Shown one piece after another: positions 4,203-46,336 of a stretch of DNA of 64,000 nt. This stretch comes from Candidatus Omnitrophota bacterium (GTDB lineage: Bacteria > Omnitrophota > Gorgyraeia > Gygaellales > Profunditerraquicolaceae). A program made the translations under genes and the position numbers. The notes beneath the pieces are model-generated. The model was not told the DNA's origin, made no database searches, and was given only the letters and a program-made list of their open reading frames with translations. The stretch covers positions 84,638-148,637 of the forward strand of contig JAQUQW010000003.1 in assembly GCA_028716245.1 (NCBI GenBank), written 5' to 3'. Position 1 is the stretch's first letter. Each line of letters opens with the position of its first letter.

Positions 4203-4895
4203 TCAATCCTCGGTTTCAAAACGGTAACCGTAATTTTTCACTGTGATAATATGCTTAGCTTCGGTTTTAAGTTTTTTACGTAGAGTGCGGATATGCACGT
4301 CTACGGTGCGGGTCTGGATCTCCATGGCATGATCAAAACCCCAGATTGTATCCAATAAATAATCCCGCGATAAAACCCTGCCTTTGACCTTAAGCAGTGT
4401 CCTTAAAAGCTCAAACTCTTTAGCGGTTAACTCAACCGGTTTATCTTTGACCGTCACACATATCTTGGCAAAATCTATTTTTAAATCTCCTGTCTGGAAT
4501 ATTTCCGGAAGCTTTTCTTTTTCAGTTACCCTGCGCAGGACCGCTTTGATGCGGGCGGCTAACTCACGCGGGCTAAACGGCTTAGTAATATAATCATCCG
4601 CACCTAACTCTAAACCTACAACTTTATCCGATTCCTGTCCTTTAGCCGTAAGCATAATGATGGGTATGGCGGCGGCCTTGCTTTCTTTTTTTAAAGCTTT
4701 ACATACCTCTAAACCATCCATTCCCGGAAGCATTAAATCCAGCAAGATAAGATCCGGATGCTGGCGCACCGCCAGATCCAGAGCATCCTCTCCGTCCCCG
4801 GCAGTAATAACCTTAAAACCTTCCTTCTCAAGGTTATACTCAAGCATTTTAATGATATCTTTTTCATCTTCAACAACTAGAATTTTTTCTTTCAT
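4203..4895 (-). CDS. phoB: OmpR/PhoB-family winged-helix response regulator
   Basis: 230 aa with receiver (ILVVEDEKDI...LLDLMLPGMDGLEVC) and C-terminal trans_reg_C wHTH (TAKEFELLRTLL...RTVDVHIRTLRKKL...YGYRFE). Confidence 0.75.
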   Translation of the reverse strand: MKEKILVVEDEKDIIKMLEYNLEKEGFKVITAGDGEDALDLAVRQHPDLILLDLMLPGMDGLEVCKALKKESKAAAIPIIMLTAKGQESDKVVGLELGADDYITKPFSPRELAARIKAVLRRVTEKEKLPEIFQTGDLKIDFAKICVTVKDKPVELTAKEFELLRTLLKVKGRVLSRDYLLDTIWGFDHAMEIQTRTVDVHIRTLRKKLKTEAKHIITVKNYGYRFETED

Positions 4896-7475: not shown

Positions 7476-7545
7476 AGGTAGCCGGGGACGTGCCAAAAAG
7501 GGACACCCTTTTTAAGGGTGTCCCTTTTTGGCACGTCCCCTTAAA
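7476..7545. terminator. Perfect 25-bp-arm inverted repeat (intrinsic terminator-like hairpin) between nrdJ stop and mnmG start
   Basis: ggggacgtgccaaaaagggacaccc-ttttta-agggtgtccctttttggcacgtcccc; perfect palindrome with internal A/T runs, likely terminating nrdJ (minus strand). Confidence 0.75.
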
Positions 7546-9886: not shown

Positions 9887-9915
9887 AATATAACAAAGGC
9901 AATAACTATTGTCAA
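9887..9915 (-). promoter_or_regulatory. Candidate sigma70 promoter for nrdJ (TTGACA-N17-TATATT on minus strand)
   Basis: -35 TTGACA is the revcomp of 9910-9915 and -10 TATATT the revcomp of 9887-9892, with a 17-nt spacer. This leaves a ~40-nt leader with an AGGTGA RBS before the ATG at 9841. Confidence 0.4.
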
Positions 9916-9979: not shown

Positions 9980-11011
9980 TTATCCGCCGGCAAAAGGCTT
10001 GCAGGACTCCCGGATCACTAATTCCGCGGGAAGCAGAATTTTTTTCGGCGCATTTTTATTTAAAACAATCAGGCGGTTTAATTCTTTGACACTTTCTTCG
10101 GCCATCCGGATCAACGGCTGGCGCACGGTAGTCAGCCCAACCGGGCCGTAAAGCCCCGAAGGGTTATCATCAAAACCGACAATCGATAAATCATCCGGAA
10201 TATTCTTGCCTAATTCACGGGCCACGGCCATTACTTCCAAGGCCATCGCATCAGAGGCGACAAACACAGCGGTTGCCGGATCAAAGGCCTTAATTAACTT
10301 CTCGGCCGCGCTTCTGGCTGCCCCGCGGGAATAATCAGTTTGAAATATATAATCCTCTCTGACCTTAATATTATTTTTCGTTAATGCGTGCTTGTAACCC
10401 TCCAGGCGCTTGGCTGCCGCCTGAGTCATTACATCCCCGGTAATATGCGCAATTTTTCGATGCCCTAACTCGATCAAATAATTGACCGCGCTCTCGGCGC
10501 CCCCGGCATTATCGATGGCGATACAGGAAACATTCAAGTCATCCACATAATAATTAATCACGACACTAGGTATGCCTTTGACTAAAGACTCTTCCAGCTG
10601 GGCGCGGTTACCGATAATATCGGAAAAGATTATCCCGCCTACCCCGCGTAAAGATAAGGGAGCGCGCGCGTCGGTTAAATGCAAAAGTAAATCCAGCTTG
10701 AGAGCTTCGCACATCGTGCCTACCCCGCGGATAAGCTCCAGGGCGTAGAATGAATAAAATACCCCTTCATAACGCGGAATTACCAAAGCCACAACATTGC
10801 TTTTGCCGGTTGCCAGGCGCTGCGCAAAGATAGACGGCTGGAATTTTAATTCGCGGACCGCATTCATTACTTTTATACGATTGGATTCTTTGACCGAGCC
10901 GATTTTATTGATCACCCGGGAAACGGTAGTAATGGATACTCCGCTGGCCCGTGCGACATCAACGATAGAATTATTTCTGGAGGGAGATGCTGCTTTTTTA
11001 GTGCGTGTCAT
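9980..11011 (-). CDS. LacI-family transcriptional regulator
   Basis: 343 aa with N-terminal HTH IVDVARASGVSITTVSRVINK and a periplasmic-binding-protein-like sugar-binding core. Confidence 0.85.
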   Translation of the reverse strand: MTRTKKAASPSRNNSIVDVARASGVSITTVSRVINKIGSVKESNRIKVMNAVRELKFQPSIFAQRLATGKSNVVALVIPRYEGVFYSFYALELIRGVGTMCEALKLDLLLHLTDARAPLSLRGVGGIIFSDIIGNRAQLEESLVKGIPSVVINYYVDDLNVSCIAIDNAGGAESAVNYLIELGHRKIAHITGDVMTQAAAKRLEGYKHALTKNNIKVREDYIFQTDYSRGAARSAAEKLIKAFDPATAVFVASDAMALEVMAVARELGKNIPDDLSIVGFDDNPSGLYGPVGLTTVRQPLIRMAEESVKELNRLIVLNKNAPKKILLPAELVIRESCKPFAGG

Positions 11012-11944: not shown

Positions 11945-13177
11945 TTATAATTGGGCGAATACTCTCTCTAAAACCAGACTTGCCGCGCCCATGGCCACGG
12001 CGTTCTCTCTTAATTGAGAATAAGTAATTTTTAAATCAGCGGTTACTTCGCGAAAAGCCCAATCTACAACTGTATTCCTTACTTTATTTAAAAACTCTTC
12101 TCCTGACTCTTCGAAGCCTCCGCCGATAATTACCACCTGCGGGTTAAGCAGGTTAACTAAATAAGCAATTTTTATCCCTAATCTTTTGGCCGCCCGGGCT
12201 AGTGCCGCCAGGGCCACTTCATTCTTTAAACGGGAAGCGCTAAATATGCTTTTTAAATCTATGTTCTCTATGCTGGTTGATGTCGCCCGTAAAAATTCTG
12301 CTGCCTTTCCTTTATCTTTAAGCAAAATTGCTTTTATCTCATCGATAATTCCCAAATCCATATCCCAACGCTTGACAAAACAAGGGGACCCAGCCGGGCA
12401 GTTAAAAAGATCCTGTTCCTTATAATTATAAATAGAAACCTCGCCGGCATATCCTTGCCAGCCGCGATAAAGTTCTCCGTTAATCATGATCCCGCAGCCG
12501 ACTCCGGAGAACATATAAATAATATCTTTATAAGCTCCTCCTAAATCCAGCCAATGTTCGCCAAAACAGGCGCTGCTGGCGTCATTTTCGATCAATGCCG
12601 GCAGATTAAATTCTTTCTCGATTAACCCCTTTAAAGGAAGGTCTACTGAGGCATAAGTATAATAATGGTCCATTTTCTGCGGCCAGCGGATAGAGCCGTC
12701 TTTTTTATTAATTAATCCGGCAACGCCTATACCGATACCTTTTATGTTTTCAACATACCCCTTGGAACGCCTTAAGATTTCGCGTACAATTTCTAAAAGG
12801 CACTCCGATACTTCCTTAACCGAAGCCTGCGGCCGGGCAATTTGAGTTTTGGTAATAATGTTGCCTTTTAAATCTACCAGAAGACCGACCATATTCATCA
12901 GGTTTAATCCCACCCCGATGGCGTATCCGGCGCGTGGGTTTAAATCCAACAACACCGGCCGGCGGCCCCCTTCGGATACGTCCAGCTCCTTTTCATAAAC
13001 CAGGTTACTCTTGATGAAATCATCGATATAATTAGAAACGCTCACTATATTTATCCCCATCTCCTGAGAGATGTCCGGGCGGCTTATCGGCCCCTGTTTT
13101 CTAAGGATACCCAATATCTCAATATTGCGTTTTTCTTTCTCGCTAAAATCTTCTTTTTGTAAATCTAATAAATGCAT
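11945..13177 (-). CDS. ROK-family transcriptional repressor (NagC/XylR-like, HTH + sugar-kinase-like fold)
   Basis: 410 aa with an N-terminal MarR-like wHTH (ILGILRKQGPISRPDISQEMGINIVSVSNYI) followed by a ROK domain with GIGVGAG-type glycine-rich motifs and Cys/His zinc motif (CxCGxxGC-like: CPAGSPCFV). Confidence 0.8.
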   Translation of the reverse strand: MHLLDLQKEDFSEKEKRNIEILGILRKQGPISRPDISQEMGINIVSVSNYIDDFIKSNLVYEKELDVSEGGRRPVLLDLNPRAGYAIGVGLNLMNMVGLLVDLKGNIITKTQIARPQASVKEVSECLLEIVREILRRSKGYVENIKGIGIGVAGLINKKDGSIRWPQKMDHYYTYASVDLPLKGLIEKEFNLPALIENDASSACFGEHWLDLGGAYKDIIYMFSGVGCGIMINGELYRGWQGYAGEVSIYNYKEQDLFNCPAGSPCFVKRWDMDLGIIDEIKAILLKDKGKAAEFLRATSTSIENIDLKSIFSASRLKNEVALAALARAAKRLGIKIAYLVNLLNPQVVIIGGGFEESGEEFLNKVRNTVVDWAFREVTADLKITYSQLRENAVAMGAASLVLERVFAQL

Positions 13178-13262
13178 AGGAGAAAATTACCTCTTATTAT
13201 AAAAATAAATAAAATATTTATTTTACTTTACTACCAAAGAAGCCTTAAGTCAAGTGATTTCA

Positions 13263-13312
13263 ACCAAGACCCTGTTTCCCGATTGAGCAGGAAACAGGGT
13301 CTTGGTTTTTTT
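13263..13312 (+). terminator. Hairpin followed by T8 run (plus-strand-oriented intrinsic-terminator-like element)
   Basis: ccaagaccctgtttcc-cgattgagc-aggaaacagggtcttgg-tttttttt. The core gtttcccgattgagc.ggaaac recurs inside the giant ORF at 57024-57045. Confidence 0.5.
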
Positions 13313-14881: not shown

Positions 14882-16207
14882 CTAGCCTCCCGCTCTTTTG
14901 TTGTGTGTTTTCTTTATTACCGGATGCTTCCAGAATTCCCTTATAACATAATAAGCCTTGCGTGGAATACGTTTATTTAAACCATTCTCAAGGCTTTCCG
15001 ATAAAGCGCAGATACCAAACCATTCTTCATTCATATTCATGCCGCCCGGCACTCTTATGTCAAAATAATAACTGCCGTTGGACCAGCCGCCTTCGGTATC
15101 ATGAACCTTCCAGCCTTCCGGATTATCAGGATTATGCTTCCACCATTCATCCGTCCACTCAAAAACCGTCCCGCCTATGCAATTACCCGCGCCTTTTTTG
15201 TTATTGGCTAAATTCTCATAGATCTGCTGCCATTGTGACTGCAGGAAGAACGCCTGCATATTCTGGTCTTCTCTTTTTAAGTAAGCATCGTAGCAATCCG
15301 CGCCGAATTCAGATAATAATACCGGTTTATCGAAAGTCATCCTGAGGGATTTAAAAAGATTCCCGAAAGTTTTACCGCGGTAAATTATACAGGCCACAAA
15401 ATCAACATCCCGGCAAAATTTGTCGGCAGAATCCAACCCCACCAACTCACCATTACCTAATCCTACGGGATGCTTGGAATCAATTTTATGTATTTCTTTG
15501 GATATGTCATTTACAAAAGAGTAATAAATTTTTGCGCGCAGTGCTTTTTGCCTCTGGGGGTTGGCCTCCTGATCAACCTCGGGGCTTGACCAGGGATTCA
15601 CATGCCCCAGGCAGGAATAATTATTCTCATTCCCTAAGATCCACCCGAGGATTCCGGGCTCATCTTTATAAAGCTTGACCATCTCTAATACCTGAGCCTT
15701 TACTTTATCCTGGAATTTTTGGTCGCCGTAAAAAGGACAGGGATATTCCCAGAACCCCAGCCAGTCACCCAAAAGCGTTCGGATTCCGTATAAGTTATAT
15801 AAATCCCGGATTACCCGCTTTACTTCTTCGGGGTTATCATGCGCTTGATAAAGACGAATAGTATTAATCCCCATCTCCTTCATCAGCTTACCGTCAACCA
15901 TCCAGGGCTTATTTGGATCACCCCACCAGTCATACTCTTGATTTGAGCCTATTGGGATCGGGCTGTAACAGACTCCTTTGATGATATAGGGACGGCCGTT
16001 GGCCATAAGACGATAATGTTGATTTTTTAACTTCTGGATATAGACGCCTTCCCTGGGCTGGCAGGCGGACAAAATAAATACAAACAAAAAACTACAGGCT
16101 ACAAGCAAAAAATGCCTGTAACCTGTAGCTTTGGAATTACTATTTTTATTATTCAAACTTGATCTCATCCAGATAGAAGGTAGCGCCTTCCGGGTTATTG
16201 TCCACAT
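14882..16207 (-). CDS. Lipoprotein glycoside hydrolase (TIM-barrel, clan GH-A-like; paralog of the C-terminal domain of 17362-19662)
   Basis: 441 aa with a lipobox-like signal (FILSAC). It carries GINTIRLYQ, LGNENNY (catalytic NE-type acid/base motif) and FEWTDEWWK. It shares these motifs with the 766-aa neighbour (GVNTIRLYHH, LLGNENVY, FEWLDEWWK). Confidence 0.55.
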   Translation of the reverse strand: MWTITRKALPSIWMRSSLNNKNSNSKATGYRHFLLVACSFLFVFILSACQPREGVYIQKLKNQHYRLMANGRPYIIKGVCYSPIPIGSNQEYDWWGDPNKPWMVDGKLMKEMGINTIRLYQAHDNPEEVKRVIRDLYNLYGIRTLLGDWLGFWEYPCPFYGDQKFQDKVKAQVLEMVKLYKDEPGILGWILGNENNYSCLGHVNPWSSPEVDQEANPQRQKALRAKIYYSFVNDISKEIHKIDSKHPVGLGNGELVGLDSADKFCRDVDFVACIIYRGKTFGNLFKSLRMTFDKPVLLSEFGADCYDAYLKREDQNMQAFFLQSQWQQIYENLANNKKGAGNCIGGTVFEWTDEWWKHNPDNPEGWKVHDTEGGWSNGSYYFDIRVPGGMNMNEEWFGICALSESLENGLNKRIPRKAYYVIREFWKHPVIKKTHNKRAGG

Positions 16208-17297
16208 TTGCCGACCAGCAAAAACCGCCGATAATATACGACAAATCTTTGCCTTTTAAATCAATGGTATATTGAGTCCACTCTTTATTCAAGAGGACCG
16301 GGCCGATGGTTGCGCTATCTGAATCCGAAAACTCTCCCATAATACCGCCGACCTTAAACTCTTCAATGCGCTCTGCGCCTTTTGCCCCGCGCGCCCAGAA
16401 GGTAAGCTTGGTGGCTTTGGAAAGATCAAAACCCGCGTCAACGCCACCCCAGTTGTTAGCCGGATTCTGCCAGAAAATTCCTGCCCAGCGCGCACCTTGG
16501 GCGGCTTTTCCGTTATAGATTATTTTAATGCAAGTATCGCCTAAATACGGATCTTCTTTTGAAGCTCCGTCATATTTTATATCGCCGTAATCACCCATCC
16601 AGCCGCTAGGTATAAAATGGTTGGCTGAAGTTGACCGGTCGGCATAAATATAGAACGGCATTGCCTGCTGTTTTTTACCTTCGGGTTTTAAAGCCGTATC
16701 CGCCTCGAATTTTACATCATCAATATAGAATGTGGCCCCGTCCGGATTTAAATCGGCGGTGGTGGTCCAGCCAAAAGCACCGTTAACATAAGAAAGGTCC
16801 TTGCCCACTAAATTAACTGTGTACTGTTTCCAGGCGTTAGTCAATTCAATAGGGCCCATCTCAACCATCACGGTATCAGGATAGGTTCCCTTGATCCCGC
16901 CGACCATCACTTTCTGGATCACTTCGCCGCCTTTTGCCCCGCGCGCCCAGAAGGTAAGCTTGGTCATGCCGGTTAAATCAAAACCGCCTTTTTTGTTTCC
17001 CCAGTTGTTTGAAGGATTCTGCCAGTAAACTCCGGCCCAACCCTGATTTTGTGATTTCTTGGCGCTATAAATAAATTGAATGCTGGTTGTCCCGCTATGC
17101 GGATTATCCGCTGCTTGGTCATTCATTTTAATATCGCCGTAATCACCCATCCAGCCGGAAGGAATATAATGATTATCCTTGGCGTTTTTATCCAAGTAGA
17201 TCACAAATTCCTTAGGGCCTGCGGCTTTTTCTTCGGCTGCGGCCATGCCGCAAACCAAAAGACTTAAAGCCAGTAATACTGCTGACAACTTTTTCAT
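16149..17297 (-). CDS. Secreted protein made of two tandem carbohydrate-binding-module-like repeats
   Basis: There are two ~185-aa repeats: HYIPSGWMGDYGDIK...WAGVYWQNPSNNWG...LTFWARGAKGGE...FYIDDVKFE and HFIPSGWMGDYGDIK...WAGIFWQNPANNWG...LTFWARGAKGAE...FYLDEIKFE. A DNA-level repeat ccttttgccccgcgcgcccagaaggtaagcttggt occurs at 16378-16415 and 16925-16962. The likely true start is MKKLSAVLL (ATG at 17297, RBS GGAGGTG). The longer ORF-track start at 17333 reads through the upstream conserved element. Confidence 0.5.
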   Translation of the reverse strand: MKKLSAVLLALSLLVCGMAAAEEKAAGPKEFVIYLDKNAKDNHYIPSGWMGDYGDIKMNDQAADNPHSGTTSIQFIYSAKKSQNQGWAGVYWQNPSNNWGNKKGGFDLTGMTKLTFWARGAKGGEVIQKVMVGGIKGTYPDTVMVEMGPIELTNAWKQYTVNLVGKDLSYVNGAFGWTTTADLNPDGATFYIDDVKFEADTALKPEGKKQQAMPFYIYADRSTSANHFIPSGWMGDYGDIKYDGASKEDPYLGDTCIKIIYNGKAAQGARWAGIFWQNPANNWGGVDAGFDLSKATKLTFWARGAKGAERIEEFKVGGIMGEFSDSDSATIGPVLLNKEWTQYTIDLKGKDLSYIIGGFCWSANVDNNPEGATFYLDEIKFE

Positions 17298-17361
17298 ACC
17301 ACACCTCCTGCCCACAAGGGCATACCCGCGCAATTCATTATAAGCGCGGGGTAACTTTCCT
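17298..17361 (-). promoter_or_regulatory. Conserved ~45-nt leader/operator element (copy A) upstream of the CBM gene, containing TATAAT and two small palindromes
   Basis: Minus-strand reading CCCGCGCTTATAATGAATTGCGCGGGTATGCCCTTGTGGGCAGGAGG. It is 39/45 identical to copy B at 22708-22756 and contains CCCGCGC-N12-GCGCGGG and TGCCC-N4-GGGCA inverted repeats. Confidence 0.5.
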
Positions 17362-40301: not shown

Positions 40302-40327
40302 GTAACCGGGGACGGGAAATTCCCGTC
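40302..40327. terminator. GC-rich hairpin ggggacggg-aaatt-cccgtcccc followed by ATTTTT (between the 1279-aa and 2267-aa giant genes)
   Basis: It shares the ccggggacg arm start with the nrdJ terminator palindrome at 7476. It has plus-oriented terminator geometry although the flanking genes are on the minus strand, so it may act bidirectionally or as an mRNA-processing/attenuation hairpin. Confidence 0.4.
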
Positions 40328-40348
40328 CCCGATTTTTCCTTAAATGAA

Positions 40349-44192: not shown

Positions 44193-45788
44193 TTATTCCT
44201 CATCACTGCCATTTGTACCGCTGTTACCTTTATCTATATTCTCGCTCTGCAGGTTTTTCTTTTCGCTTCTTAAGACGGAAAGATAAACGCTGGAGTCGGT
44301 TTTCTTAGTGATTGTCGGGGTGACTACCGCGTAGGAATAGCCTTTTTCTTTAAACATCTGCGTCATACCGGGCGTGTGAAACCCGCCGGCGATAAATACC
44401 GCTATTTTTTCTCCGGATTCATCCATTTTCTTGACAATGTTCTTAATAAACGCCTGCTCGCGGTCAGAACCCAATTTATAAAATTCCTCAAATTTACTCA
44501 TGTTCTCATCGATTACCCCGGAGGCCGACGGCCGCAGCGCTAAATTGTATTTGGCGCAGTTATCGCTTAAGAAACTTAACCAGGAACCGGTTGACATATC
44601 CGCCCGGTTTGCCTTAAAATATCCGTAATCTTCGGGGGTCAACTCTAAACTGACAACACCTTTAAGCACATCAAGCGCTTTTGAAATTTCATACAATTTT
44701 TTCTGGTCGGCGTTGGCGAAAAGCTCCTCTTTTATTTTCTCTTCCAAAGAACCGACTTCTTTTAAGAGCTGGGCGACATCTATTTTTTTGTTTTCGTTTA
44801 TGTAGCGGATATAGGCGGCCAACTGGGGATAATTTTGTTCAAGGTTGATTCTTTTCTTTGCCGCCAGGTCTTTCAAAAATGAATAATATTCCCCGGAGGT
44901 GATATTTCCAGCCTTAAAATCCTGGCTCTTGTCAACTACAGTTTTTACCTGCTTTTCATTGAGCAGGCTGGCTAAGCTCTTGATAAACTCATTCCTTTGG
45001 GCTTCCGCTTCCTTAAAATCAACCTCTTTTTCCATCCGGGCAAGCTCCGCGAAAGCGCTTAAAAAAGGATAGCTTTGAAGGTCAAAACCTTTATTACTGG
45101 CAATATTTTTAAGATAGCCGCAGTATTCCCCCAAAGATAAAGTTTTATCCTCATAGTTTTTCTTGGCGCTCTCTAAATATTTTACTTCTTCGCTGTAGAT
45201 CTTTGGCTTTAAAGCGTTGACAACTTTGGCTAAATCCTCTAAGTATTTTAAACTTTCGTCCCTAAGGGCATCTACTTTATGAAAAACATCCAAATGCGCC
45301 TCATACAAGGCTTCATCTTCTATCCCGTAAAGGTCAAGAGGATAATCGGCAACAATGTCCAAATACTCTTCGCCTGAGATTTTTCCCAGCTTCAGGTATT
45401 TATCCGCCACGCCTTCCCGGGCTTTTTTATCAGCGTAGTTGCGCAAAAACTCAAGGTTGACATTTCCGCTGCCGCCTTCAACCATGATCAATTTAAGATT
45501 TTGCTCCTTGGCCAGATAATCCAACAACTGCGCCATATTTTTCTGGGCTTCATAATTACAATGGGCATCCTGGATATGGATAATCGTCTTACCTAAATTA
45601 GAATTCTGCGTATTGACAGGTGTAGTGTCCTGGCTATCAAACACCTCTTTGATGTTTCCGAATATGGAGGGAATATTGATGGTTTTTACTAATGAGGTTG
45701 GGCTTGCTAAGCTAATTCCAAAGAAGAAAAAGAATTGGATCGCTAAGAATATTAGAATTTTTCCGCGATGAGGCTTATTTTCCAACAT
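44193..45788 (-). CDS. TraB/GumN/Tiki-superfamily-like secreted protein (first gene of the giant-protein operon)
   Basis: 531 aa with a signal peptide (ILIFLAIQFFFFFGISLASP). The N-terminal TIIHIQDAHCNYE motif (cf. GTMHV..) and the C-terminal VFIAGGFHTPGMTQMFKEKGYSYAVV (cf. VGAGHL.G..G....L...GY.V) match the two conserved motif regions of the TraB/GumN family. The assignment is tentative. Confidence 0.4.
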   Translation of the reverse strand: MLENKPHRGKILIFLAIQFFFFFGISLASPTSLVKTINIPSIFGNIKEVFDSQDTTPVNTQNSNLGKTIIHIQDAHCNYEAQKNMAQLLDYLAKEQNLKLIMVEGGSGNVNLEFLRNYADKKAREGVADKYLKLGKISGEEYLDIVADYPLDLYGIEDEALYEAHLDVFHKVDALRDESLKYLEDLAKVVNALKPKIYSEEVKYLESAKKNYEDKTLSLGEYCGYLKNIASNKGFDLQSYPFLSAFAELARMEKEVDFKEAEAQRNEFIKSLASLLNEKQVKTVVDKSQDFKAGNITSGEYYSFLKDLAAKKRINLEQNYPQLAAYIRYINENKKIDVAQLLKEVGSLEEKIKEELFANADQKKLYEISKALDVLKGVVSLELTPEDYGYFKANRADMSTGSWLSFLSDNCAKYNLALRPSASGVIDENMSKFEEFYKLGSDREQAFIKNIVKKMDESGEKIAVFIAGGFHTPGMTQMFKEKGYSYAVVTPTITKKTDSSVYLSVLRSEKKNLQSENIDKGNSGTNGSDEE

Positions 45789-45825
45789 TTTCTCCTTCCT
45801 TTCTCGCGGCCGGCAACAAATAAGA

Positions 45826-45902
45826 CAGCCGCGATTTTTTTAATTGAGCTAACAACTCCGGCGAAAAGCCGGAGTTGTTAGCTCAATTAAAAACCGTGGC
45901 TG
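45826..45902. repeat. 77-nt near-perfect inverted repeat (23-bp perfect core arms) in the 5' leader of the giant-protein operon
   Basis: cagccgcg-atttttt-ttaattgagctaacaactccggc-gaaaa-gccggagttgttagctcaattaa-aaaa-ccgtggctg. Confidence 0.6.
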
Positions 45903-45977
45903 TCTTTAATTACCTAACTAGAAAATTATAAGCTTCAGAAAAACTTTTAAAAACTATTTCTCTCAGATTCGTTGTAA

Positions 45978-46005
45978 AGTATACAATATTTAAAAGCCTT
46001 GTCAA
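45978..46005 (-). promoter_or_regulatory. Candidate sigma70 promoter (TTGACA-N16-TATACT, minus strand) for the TraB-like/giant-protein operon
   Basis: -35 is the revcomp of 46000-46005 and -10 the revcomp of 45978-45983. It predicts a ~180-nt leader containing the 45826-45902 palindrome. Confidence 0.35.
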
Positions 46006-46139
46006 GTATTTTTTTAACTTTTTTTCTTTTTTATTTATCAGAGCCAAAACCCTCGGGATATGCAATAGTTAAGTGATTAAAACATCCCCCGGATCATAGG
46101 CAACAATGTCATTTCTGGCCTCCAAAACGTAAGTTAGAT

Positions 46140-46198
46140 AGGGAACGTTTCTATTTTTTACCAGAGTCATACTTTCTTAAAAAATAGACACGTTCCCT
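46140..46198. repeat. Inverted repeat with 20-nt arms (1 mismatch) and 19-nt loop downstream of the giant ORF stop
   Basis: agggaacgtttctatttttt ... aaaaaatagacacgttccct. Confidence 0.5.
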
Positions 46199-46250
46199 GG
46201 TTTTTCGCCTGTCAGACTCGCCTTAATATGAATTTAAAGTGCACTTATCC

Positions 46251-46310
46251 AGATTGGACAAATATCAAGCCAGAATGGACAATAATACGCTCTATTATTA
46301 AGATTGGACA
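46251..46310. repeat. Three direct repeats AGAWTGGACA (46251, 46272, 46301) immediately 3' of the giant ORF
   Basis: agattggaca / agaatggaca / agattggaca with 21- and 29-nt spacing in an ORF-free 550-bp region. Confidence 0.4.
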
Positions 46311-46336
46311 TAAGTTACACTTAATATTTCTGAAAT

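Follow-up and report, generated by a model that had tools for sequence, protein, structure and literature searches.

Omnitrophota are uncultured bacteria noted for giant genes. Here we analyze an intergenic region, and above all a long hairpin within it, in a 64,000-nucleotide stretch of DNA from a Candidatus Omnitrophota bacterium (contig JAQUQW010000003.1, positions 84,638 to 148,637; hereafter the window). Every large open reading frame (ORF) of the window lies on the minus strand. Two of them border the region at 45789-46336: a giant ORF of 5868 amino acids (aa), whose stop codon is at 46337, and a 531-aa ORF that begins with the ATG at 45788. An earlier interpretation made from the letters and their ORFs alone, the sequence-only reading, had called this gap ORF-free, and so it is in effect: the largest ORF inside does not exceed 51 aa, and the small ones look spurious. 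Downstream of the gap follows a densely packed string of co-directional genes, which encode the 531-aa protein, an aldolase/FBPase fusion (1279 aa), a PPDK fusion (2267 aa), a TIM-GAPDH-PGK fusion (1493 aa), a 1758-aa protein, a PilZ protein and a sugar ABC transporter. Because the gaps along this string measure at most 150 nucleotides (nt) from 45788 down to about 13328, the transcription unit may reach a length of about 32 kb. The region is also a boundary of synteny: the downstream order of 531-aa gene, FBPase and PPDK is kept among relatives, while the upstream neighbour varies, being the giant ORF in the window and a 238-aa, 434-aa or 1123-aa gene elsewhere. The features recognized in the gap are collected in Table 1.

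Table 1. Features of the gap between the giant ORF and the 531-aa gene (window coordinates)
Feature	Position	Strand	Details
Three direct repeats (T/A)TGTCCAWTCT, candidate protein-binding DNA sites	46251..46311	-	Start-to-start distances about 29 and 21 nt
Second hairpin	46140..46198	-	139 nt after the stop of the giant ORF; no U-tract
UP-element-like A-rich tract AAAAAAGAAAAAAAGTTAAAAAAATAC	46006..46034	-	Directly 5' of the -35 hexamer; read from sequence
Predicted sigma-70-type promoter	45978..46005	-	-35 TTGACA 46005-46000, 16-nt spacer, -10 TATACT 45983-45978
Predicted 5' leader of the operon, about 180 nt	45789..45977	-	Ends in Shine-Dalgarno GGAAGGAG (45799-45792) and ATG 45788
Putative cre/LacI-type operator remnant AGAAATAGTTTTTA	45948..45961	-	Relatives: TGAAAGCGCTTTCA at matching offset from -10
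Big palindrome (leader hairpin)	45822..45906	-	GCCACGG 5' base 45900-45894; CGCGGC 3' base 45833-45828
U-rich tail UGUCUUAUUUGUUG	45814..45827	-	Partly eroded form of the relatives' U-run and AUU

Homologous loci came from exact-protein look-ups and from scanning a single genome of each species (80 loci); 97 loci, numbered with the prefix L, were fetched in all. The closest relative found is represented by L001/L005, in which the 531-aa gene is 92% identical to that of the window, at the DNA and the protein level alike. A conserved cassette was delimited in about 20 loci, those with an identity of at least about 45% between their 531-aa protein and that of the window, and all counts given below for 20 cassettes include the window itself. 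In every one of them the order promoter, hairpin, start codon is maintained.

The promoter had already been proposed by the sequence-only reading, which saw in it the reason to place the palindrome in an operon leader, and the comparison with relatives bears this out. TTGACA-16-TATACT scores 11 out of 12 in a consensus scan; it is the top match in the region and one of only three matches at this level across 40-60 kb. Among the 21 closest orthologous loci, 18 have an equivalent element, TTGACA-N15-18-TAnnnT, at the corresponding place 130-215 nt 5' of the start codon, and the predicted transcription start in the window is near 45971. The A-rich tract is likewise present at the equivalent place in most orthologous cassettes. 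From AAAAAAAGTTAAAAAAATAC onward it shows no difference between the window and L001, and it would function as an UP element. Another promoter match of 11 out of 12 in the window is found at 9887-9915 (minus strand; TTGACA-17-TG-TATATT, with an extended -10), between the gene of a LacI-family regulator and a ribonucleotide-reductase gene.

As a yardstick for the conservation of the leader, we used the four-fold degenerate sites of the adjacent gene. Promoter and leader together are 96% identical to the closest relative (L005), against 80% at the four-fold sites; the corresponding values for three other relatives are 79 versus 75%, 77 versus 71% and, for the most distant one, 65 versus 53%. Conservation that exceeds that of four-fold degenerate sites indicates that the leader is under selection. 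For the leader in its entirety the folding energy is -81.2 kcal/mol (z -8.95). A leader peptide was rejected, since the leader lacks an ATG and has no credible small ORF.

Within the leader lies the big palindrome, which the sequence-only reading had given as 77 nt and which proves slightly larger, at 85 nt. Its inner arms (45837-45862 and 45868-45893) are 26 nt long, 100% complementary and separated by a 5-nt loop; its outer arms (45822-45839 and 45889-45906) extend over 18 nt with 89% complementarity. As minus-strand RNA the palindrome folds at -62.1 kcal/mol, compared with -18.4 for shuffled sequences (z -13.6). The stem lies 72 nt 3' of the promoter, and the ATG follows 33 nt beyond it. 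The palindrome arm is single-copy in the window, where long perfect intergenic hairpins are rare (four in 64 kb). Two further intergenic hairpins of the window are both GC-rich and have their T-run on the non-coding strand, with an A-run preceding them on the coding strand; they look like terminators of antisense transcription or U-less 3'-end structures. The hairpin at 13262-13307 closes the long gene string, and that at 40307-40331 separates the FBPase-fusion and PPDK-fusion genes.

A hairpin is present at the orthologous position in all 20 cassettes, closed by GCCACG/CGUGGC or a near variant. Its interior differs completely between species and ranges from 20 to 73 nt, yet it is always self-complementary, with z-scores of -1.5 to -12.7 against shuffled interiors. 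The shortest hairpins, in L010 and L012, consist of an 8-bp stem and a 4-nt loop, and the longest, of about 70 nt, belong to the subclade of the window. On the 3' side of the stem follows a run of U and then AUU, with seven to nine U within 9 nt in 18 of the 20 cassettes. The start codon lies 8-35 nt after the U-run in most loci (the exception is L016, at about 210 nt), which therefore leaves no room for a second promoter. A terminator scanner independently calls L012 361-382 and L010 2929-2948, both directly 3' of promoters scoring 10 out of 12. By these features, the homologous hairpin of the relatives can be classed as a canonical intrinsic terminator, and the big palindrome of the window is a lineage-specific elongation of a much shorter, conserved terminator-like hairpin. 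The outer extension of the stem, AAGACA/UGUCUU, is a lineage-specific feature seen in the window and L005.

Covariation in homologous loci, suggested earlier as a check on the hairpin, speaks clearly for it. In the subclade alignment, 8 of 34 predicted pairs have changed on both sides, and none of 500 shuffles reaches the observed values; 94.5% of the alignment cells can pair, compared with 34-53% when the partners are slid against each other. The two arms of the stem base have evolved differently. The 3' arm has undergone about ten independent changes: C became U, with G.U pairs as the result; U became C in two cases, each leaving an A.C mismatch; and C became G or A. The 5' arm, GCCACGG, carries no substitution in 20 sequences, although four of its positions would tolerate a wobble change. 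Those changes in the 3' arm that yield G.U pairs show RNA pairing of the stem base to be under selection, and the frozen GCCACGG arm shows a further, sequence-specific constraint on its strand. Most simply, the frozen 7-mer would be explained by a protein or RNA that acts in trans and reads it on the nascent transcript or on the non-template DNA strand. An alternative cis partner for GCCACGG was found neither in the leader nor in the early coding region.

For a more general search, a covariance model (R1) was built from the 20 hairpins, whose own matches to the model thus hold by construction, so that the information lies in the lack of further matches; the window hairpin, as a member of the training set, scores 61.6 bits (E 2e-11). 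Across the window together with 606 kb of Omnitrophota DNA, matches to R1 are limited to the heads of these operons, save for one extra copy in L004, and a further 38 kb of Omnitrophota DNA yielded no match. The extra copy belongs to a complete second cassette with promoter, operator-like box and GCCACGG hairpin (L004 2290-2450); the gene that it precedes, for a methyltransferase-iPGM fusion of 1123 aa, has been inserted immediately ahead of the operon. A regulon was considered for this locus and rejected. The iPGM gene is internal to the operon in four other genomes, where no separate cassette precedes it, and the second cassette of L004 is therefore a copy of the operon head that arose by local duplication. 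As far as these data show, the element marks the head of the glycolytic operon rather than a wider regulon. Distant paralogous loci (at most 40% identity) do not carry it, with the exception of L023, from a genome labelled Ratteibacteria. There, at about 2386-2470, GCCACGG is kept 5' of a small hairpin and is followed by a different terminator stem (AGCCGGGUU...AACCCGGG-U7), so that the 7-mer is retained outside the terminator.

Searches of Rfam and of metagenomes gave no counterpart. The Infernal scans against Rfam 15, also among the checks suggested beforehand, were negative, with no gathering-level match in the window or in 15 orthologous loci; the best sub-threshold match over the palindrome, with generic long-hairpin models of microRNAs and small RNAs, reaches 51.6 bits against a gathering score of 116.6. 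A metagenome scan for GCCACGGTTTTTAATT-N20-50-AATTA returned 13 loci, all of them chance matches with neither hairpin nor promoter context.

The leaders of about half of the cassettes contain a further element, the palindrome TGAAAGCGCTTTCA or near variants of it, 10-24 nt after the -10 hexamer; examples are L012 (303) and L020 (2907). Sites with zero to three mismatches occur at the same offset in L008, L004b (a cassette of L004), L009-L014 and L020. Of the 12 matches with at most two mismatches in 606 kb, six are located in cassette leaders and a seventh lies upstream of a paralogue. In L041 (2797) a palindrome of this type stands upstream of a paralogous gene. In the window, the sequence about 14 nt after the -10 hexamer has five mismatches to the 14-mer (9/14) and no central CG, and no intergenic region of the window has a site with three mismatches or fewer. 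Hence the lineage of the window has probably lost the cre/LacI-type operator or altered it. Among the regulators encoded in the window are one of the LacI family (9980-11011), a ROK/NagC-like one (11945-13177) and one of the OmpR type (4203-4895).

The explanation that we favour, at somewhat better than an even chance, is that of a leader attenuator which gates a long operon and is passed by factor-dependent read-through. The sigma-70 promoter would start a leader of about 180 nt that holds the hairpin; by default, many polymerases would halt at the hairpin, before the first gene. A trans-acting factor that reads GCCACGG, as RNA or as non-template DNA, would then allow polymerases to proceed into roughly 30 kb of costly genes. 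In this model the hairpin is probably the on/off gate of the operon. Where transcription begins, whether it ends at the hairpin, and whether a read-through factor exists and of what kind, are matters of inference here. An attenuator hairpin had been among the candidates of the sequence-only reading, and it is still the best one, given that the relatives' hairpin is a textbook terminator; the part that fits less well is the U-tract of the window itself, which is eroded.

This erosion is one of several points that weigh against an attenuator. The tail in the window is UGUCUUAUUUGU, with six U in 9 nt (L018 likewise has six), where L006, L002 and L008 have the U-run UUUUUUUAUU. In addition, the first 6 nt of the window tail pair with the upstream AAGACA and lengthen the stem. 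The terminator scanner gives no call at the window hairpin, a consequence of this outward extension and of the altered U-run, and termination may be inefficient in the lineage of the window. Start site and termination are both deduced from the DNA letters, and no candidate gene for the read-through factor was identified in the genome fragments. A conserved antiterminator with GCCACGG in its loop had to be rejected as a general feature: pairing between the left arm and a segment upstream of it reaches significance in L009, L011, L017, L018 and L008 and is absent in L010, L012, L014, L016, L020 and L051. Only about half of the cassettes show it, and the mean z is -0.77. Finally, the genome contains other long intergenic hairpins that lack a U-run (7484-7540, 13262-13307, 40307-40331), and long hairpins may thus serve another general role, such as RNA processing or stability.

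This last point leads to an alternative that we consider unlikely but take most seriously, namely that the hairpin is a 5' untranslated element of processing, stability or translation: a substrate of an RNase III-type enzyme, a protective structure or a gate for ribosomes. The duplex in the window, about 35 bp long, near-perfect and with a folding energy of -62 kcal/mol, would suit such a role, as would its eroded U-tract and the further long U-less intergenic hairpins within and at the ends of operons. In several relatives (L008, L019), moreover, no more than about 10 nt separate the stem from the start codon, so that a ribosome footprint covers the stem base. However, most relatives have a short version (8-18 bp) with a perfect run of seven to nine U behind it, the signature of termination rather than of RNase III sites, and conservation concerns the stem base and the U-run, precisely the parts that termination needs. 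A nuclease specific for duplexes would also leave the invariant, single-strand-specific GCCACGG unexplained.

A more specific form of the attenuator model, and a rather unlikely one in our estimation, would make GCCACGG the recruitment site of a lineage-specific system of processive antitermination, functionally comparable to ops/RfaH or to the LoaP hairpin. If this were true, transcription of the giant-protein operon of about 30 kb would depend strictly on the antitermination system, and the locus would offer a first glimpse of how giant genes are transcribed in Omnitrophota.

Distinctly unlikely, to our mind, is an independent gene for a small RNA of about 100-180 nt, bounded by promoter and terminator and acting in trans, with the operon being served by leaky read-through. 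The cassette is indeed complete from promoter to terminator, the terminator is canonical in the relatives, and in L004 the whole has been duplicated as a unit. Yet the body of the transcript is not conserved across the clade, save for GCCACGG and the operator-like box that about half of the loci possess, and it contains no obvious seed. Within 644 kb the cassette is never uncoupled from a co-oriented downstream gene, and most loci have no other promoter that could serve the operon.

We regard it as improbable that the hairpin is a bidirectional insulator against antisense or outside read-through at the operon boundary. In most cassettes an A-tract lies 5' of the stem, so that the opposite strand also presents a hairpin with a T-run; R1 matches the antisense strand with E values of 0.003-0.06, and the scanner calls L010 on both strands. 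The window hairpins at 13262-13307 and 40307-40331, with a T-run on the non-coding strand only, are compatible with such a function. The sense U-run is nevertheless the better conserved one, with R1 scores of 33-64 bits in sense versus 19-28 in antisense, and an insulator placed 3' of the operon's own promoter would block that promoter too. Least probable of all is that the palindromes and repeats have no function and arose by chance or as selfish palindromic insertions resembling miniature inverted-repeat transposable elements (MITE) or repetitive extragenic palindromes (REP): the second hairpin is unique to this genome and the L001 gap does carry two REP-like copies, but for the big palindrome, which is single-copy, orthologous in about 20 species and characterized by conserved flanks and compensatory changes, this origin is excluded, leaving it as a possibility for the second hairpin only, itself single-copy in the loci examined. 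A dispersed element of the REP/MITE type was rejected for the big palindrome also because multiple copies at non-orthologous sites are missing.

Returning to the gap as a whole, the part upstream of the leader has a different history. Between the window and L001/L005 only two islands can be aligned there, the promoter with its A-tract and a 60-nt block with the TGTCCA repeats. The three AGAWTGGACA repeats reported by the sequence-only reading are real: they begin at 46251, 46272 and 46301 and occur nowhere else in 64 kb, against an expectation of 0.13 copies, and none of 100 shuffles has three or more. The block is kept in L001/L005 with unchanged spacing while both of its flanks are unalignable; counted by eye, the cores are about 90% and the spacers about 62% identical to L001, compared with 80% at four-fold sites. 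It is absent from every other relative. As RNA it has no structure beyond that of shuffled sequences (z -0.5), and neither does the segment 46030-46110 differ from shuffles. A regulator of this pair of species could plausibly bind the repeats as iterated DNA sites; as a general part of the control region they are not supported, being common to the window and one relative only.

The second hairpin, too, was correctly noticed, with arms (46140-46167 and 46171-46198) of 28 nt and 86% complementarity rather than of 20 nt. It folds at -25.4 kcal/mol (z -6.4), and no copy was found in the 97 fetched loci, L001 included, or elsewhere in the window. It is at most a 3'-end structure of the giant-ORF transcript; alternatively, it could stabilize the giant-ORF mRNA or represent an inserted palindromic element. 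Thus, of the control region envisaged for the giant genes, promoter, leader and big hairpin are conserved, whereas the second hairpin and the TGTCCA repeats are not general parts of it; by their distribution, these two seem to be recent local additions, not core components of the switch.

Other identities were considered for these sequences and discarded. A transposon end of the Tn7/Mu type has no inverted partner cluster of the TGTCCA repeats anywhere in the window. For a sigma-54 promoter, the GG-N10-GC spacing is missing, by eye, from the 3' arm with its tail and from the TGTCCA block. DnaA boxes of a replication origin were suggested by TTATCCAGA at 46245, which matches the box in 8 of 9 positions (by eye), and were rejected because the cumulative GC skew is monotonic across the window and the genes are all co-directional. 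A REP-like unit, GGGTGTCCC-N5-GGCACGTCCC, is present in two direct copies in the homologous gap of L001 (5462-5485 and 5729-5752), within a 49-nt direct repeat that brackets the TGTCCA block. Two inverted copies of the same unit form a perfect 27-bp hairpin at 7484-7540 of the window, where they separate the ribonucleotide-reductase and MnmG genes. Since L001 holds different small elements in the corresponding space, this gap evidently gains and loses small structured elements.

The genes on either side deserve a short description. The giant ORF (46337-63943, minus strand) combines a protein-kinase domain, a SecA motor and an M48 peptidase in a single reading frame, and its SecA motor is complete, with DEAD, preprotein-binding and P-loop domains. 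None of the five relatives that were compared (L001, L002, L004, L006 and L007) has a homologue of this ORF beside the operon. The product of the first operon gene (44193-45788, minus strand) is identical to PHG87_06605. This 531-aa protein has a hydrophobic segment at its N-terminus and the invariant motifs QDAHCNY and GGFHT; it is kept across many Omnitrophota (258 hits), and no relative was found in Pfam, NCBIfam or PDB. Further down the gene string, at 16088-16132 (minus strand), a 20-bp hairpin followed by UUUUUUGUUUGU is the strongest canonical terminator-like site of the window. It is situated where the called ORF 16149-17333 overlaps with the next one, 14882-16207. This downstream ORF may have been assigned a wrong start, and the long gene string may contain an internal terminator.

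In two papers on giant genes of Omnitrophota, the terms promoter, terminator and intergenic are absent; it is the protein domains that papers on these bacteria discuss. Against this background the locus supplies a concrete promoter consensus, a conserved leader element that is absent from Rfam, and a testable hypothesis of how an operon of about 30 kb for fused glycolytic enzymes is switched. At 20-45 nt, the short hairpins of the relatives lend themselves to in vitro transcription by a heterologous RNA polymerase, and the invariant 7-mer is a handle for a search for the factor by phylogenetic profiling of complete genomes.

How does the proposed attenuator relate to known systems? Leader attenuators are familiar from Bacillus as riboswitches, T-boxes and protein-controlled leaders, e.g. 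the pairs of ribonucleic antiterminator (RAT) and terminator in BglG/LicT-type systems. The cassette shares with them a strong promoter of constitutive appearance, a leader of about 100-180 nt, a GC-rich stem with a U-run just before the first gene, and a conserved sequence that overlaps the 5' arm of the terminator. Unlike them, it has no conserved region of aptamer size upstream (in L004b only about 35 nt precede the stem), no match in Rfam and no consistent antiterminator; its conserved part of 7 nt is the stem base itself.

Among systems of processive antitermination, LoaP acts on the leaders of the dfn and mln polyketide operons, which are gated by terminators and carry a hairpin with a UNCG tetraloop upstream of the terminator (PMC12691694). 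In common with LoaP and, more loosely, with RfaH/ops, the cassette combines a very long and costly operon, a terminator in the leader and a short, invariant, strand-specific element. In contrast to LoaP, the invariant motif lies within the terminator stem, and the loops of the cassettes are not UNCG. The consensus of ops is GGCGGTAGnnT; neither an ops-like sequence nor a UNCG loop was found in the leaders.

A further parallel is the 32-kb conjugation operon of pLS20, where a zipper-type attenuator, cATT, uses a long stem as antiterminator and a separate terminator follows (PMC13401043). A long stem-loop in the leader, an operon of more than 30 kb and flanks that extend the stem (AAGACA/UGUCUU and UUUUCU/AGAAAG in the window) are common to both, but in the cassette the features of a terminator reside on the long stem itself, and no second terminator precedes the Shine-Dalgarno sequence. 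Because the UNCG hairpin and the separate zipped terminator are both missing here, we regard the relation to the LoaP and pLS20 systems as functional likeness, not membership.

As for the operator-like box, operators of the cre/LacI family are 14-bp palindromes with the consensus TGWNANCGNTNWCA (PMC8091064). The TGAAAGCGCTTTCA of the relatives fits this consensus and is located at a typical roadblock position after the promoter, whereas the leader of the window contains no acceptable site. Within a familiar class, the element can be regarded as a new member confined to one clade; its oddity is the frozen 7-nt arm.

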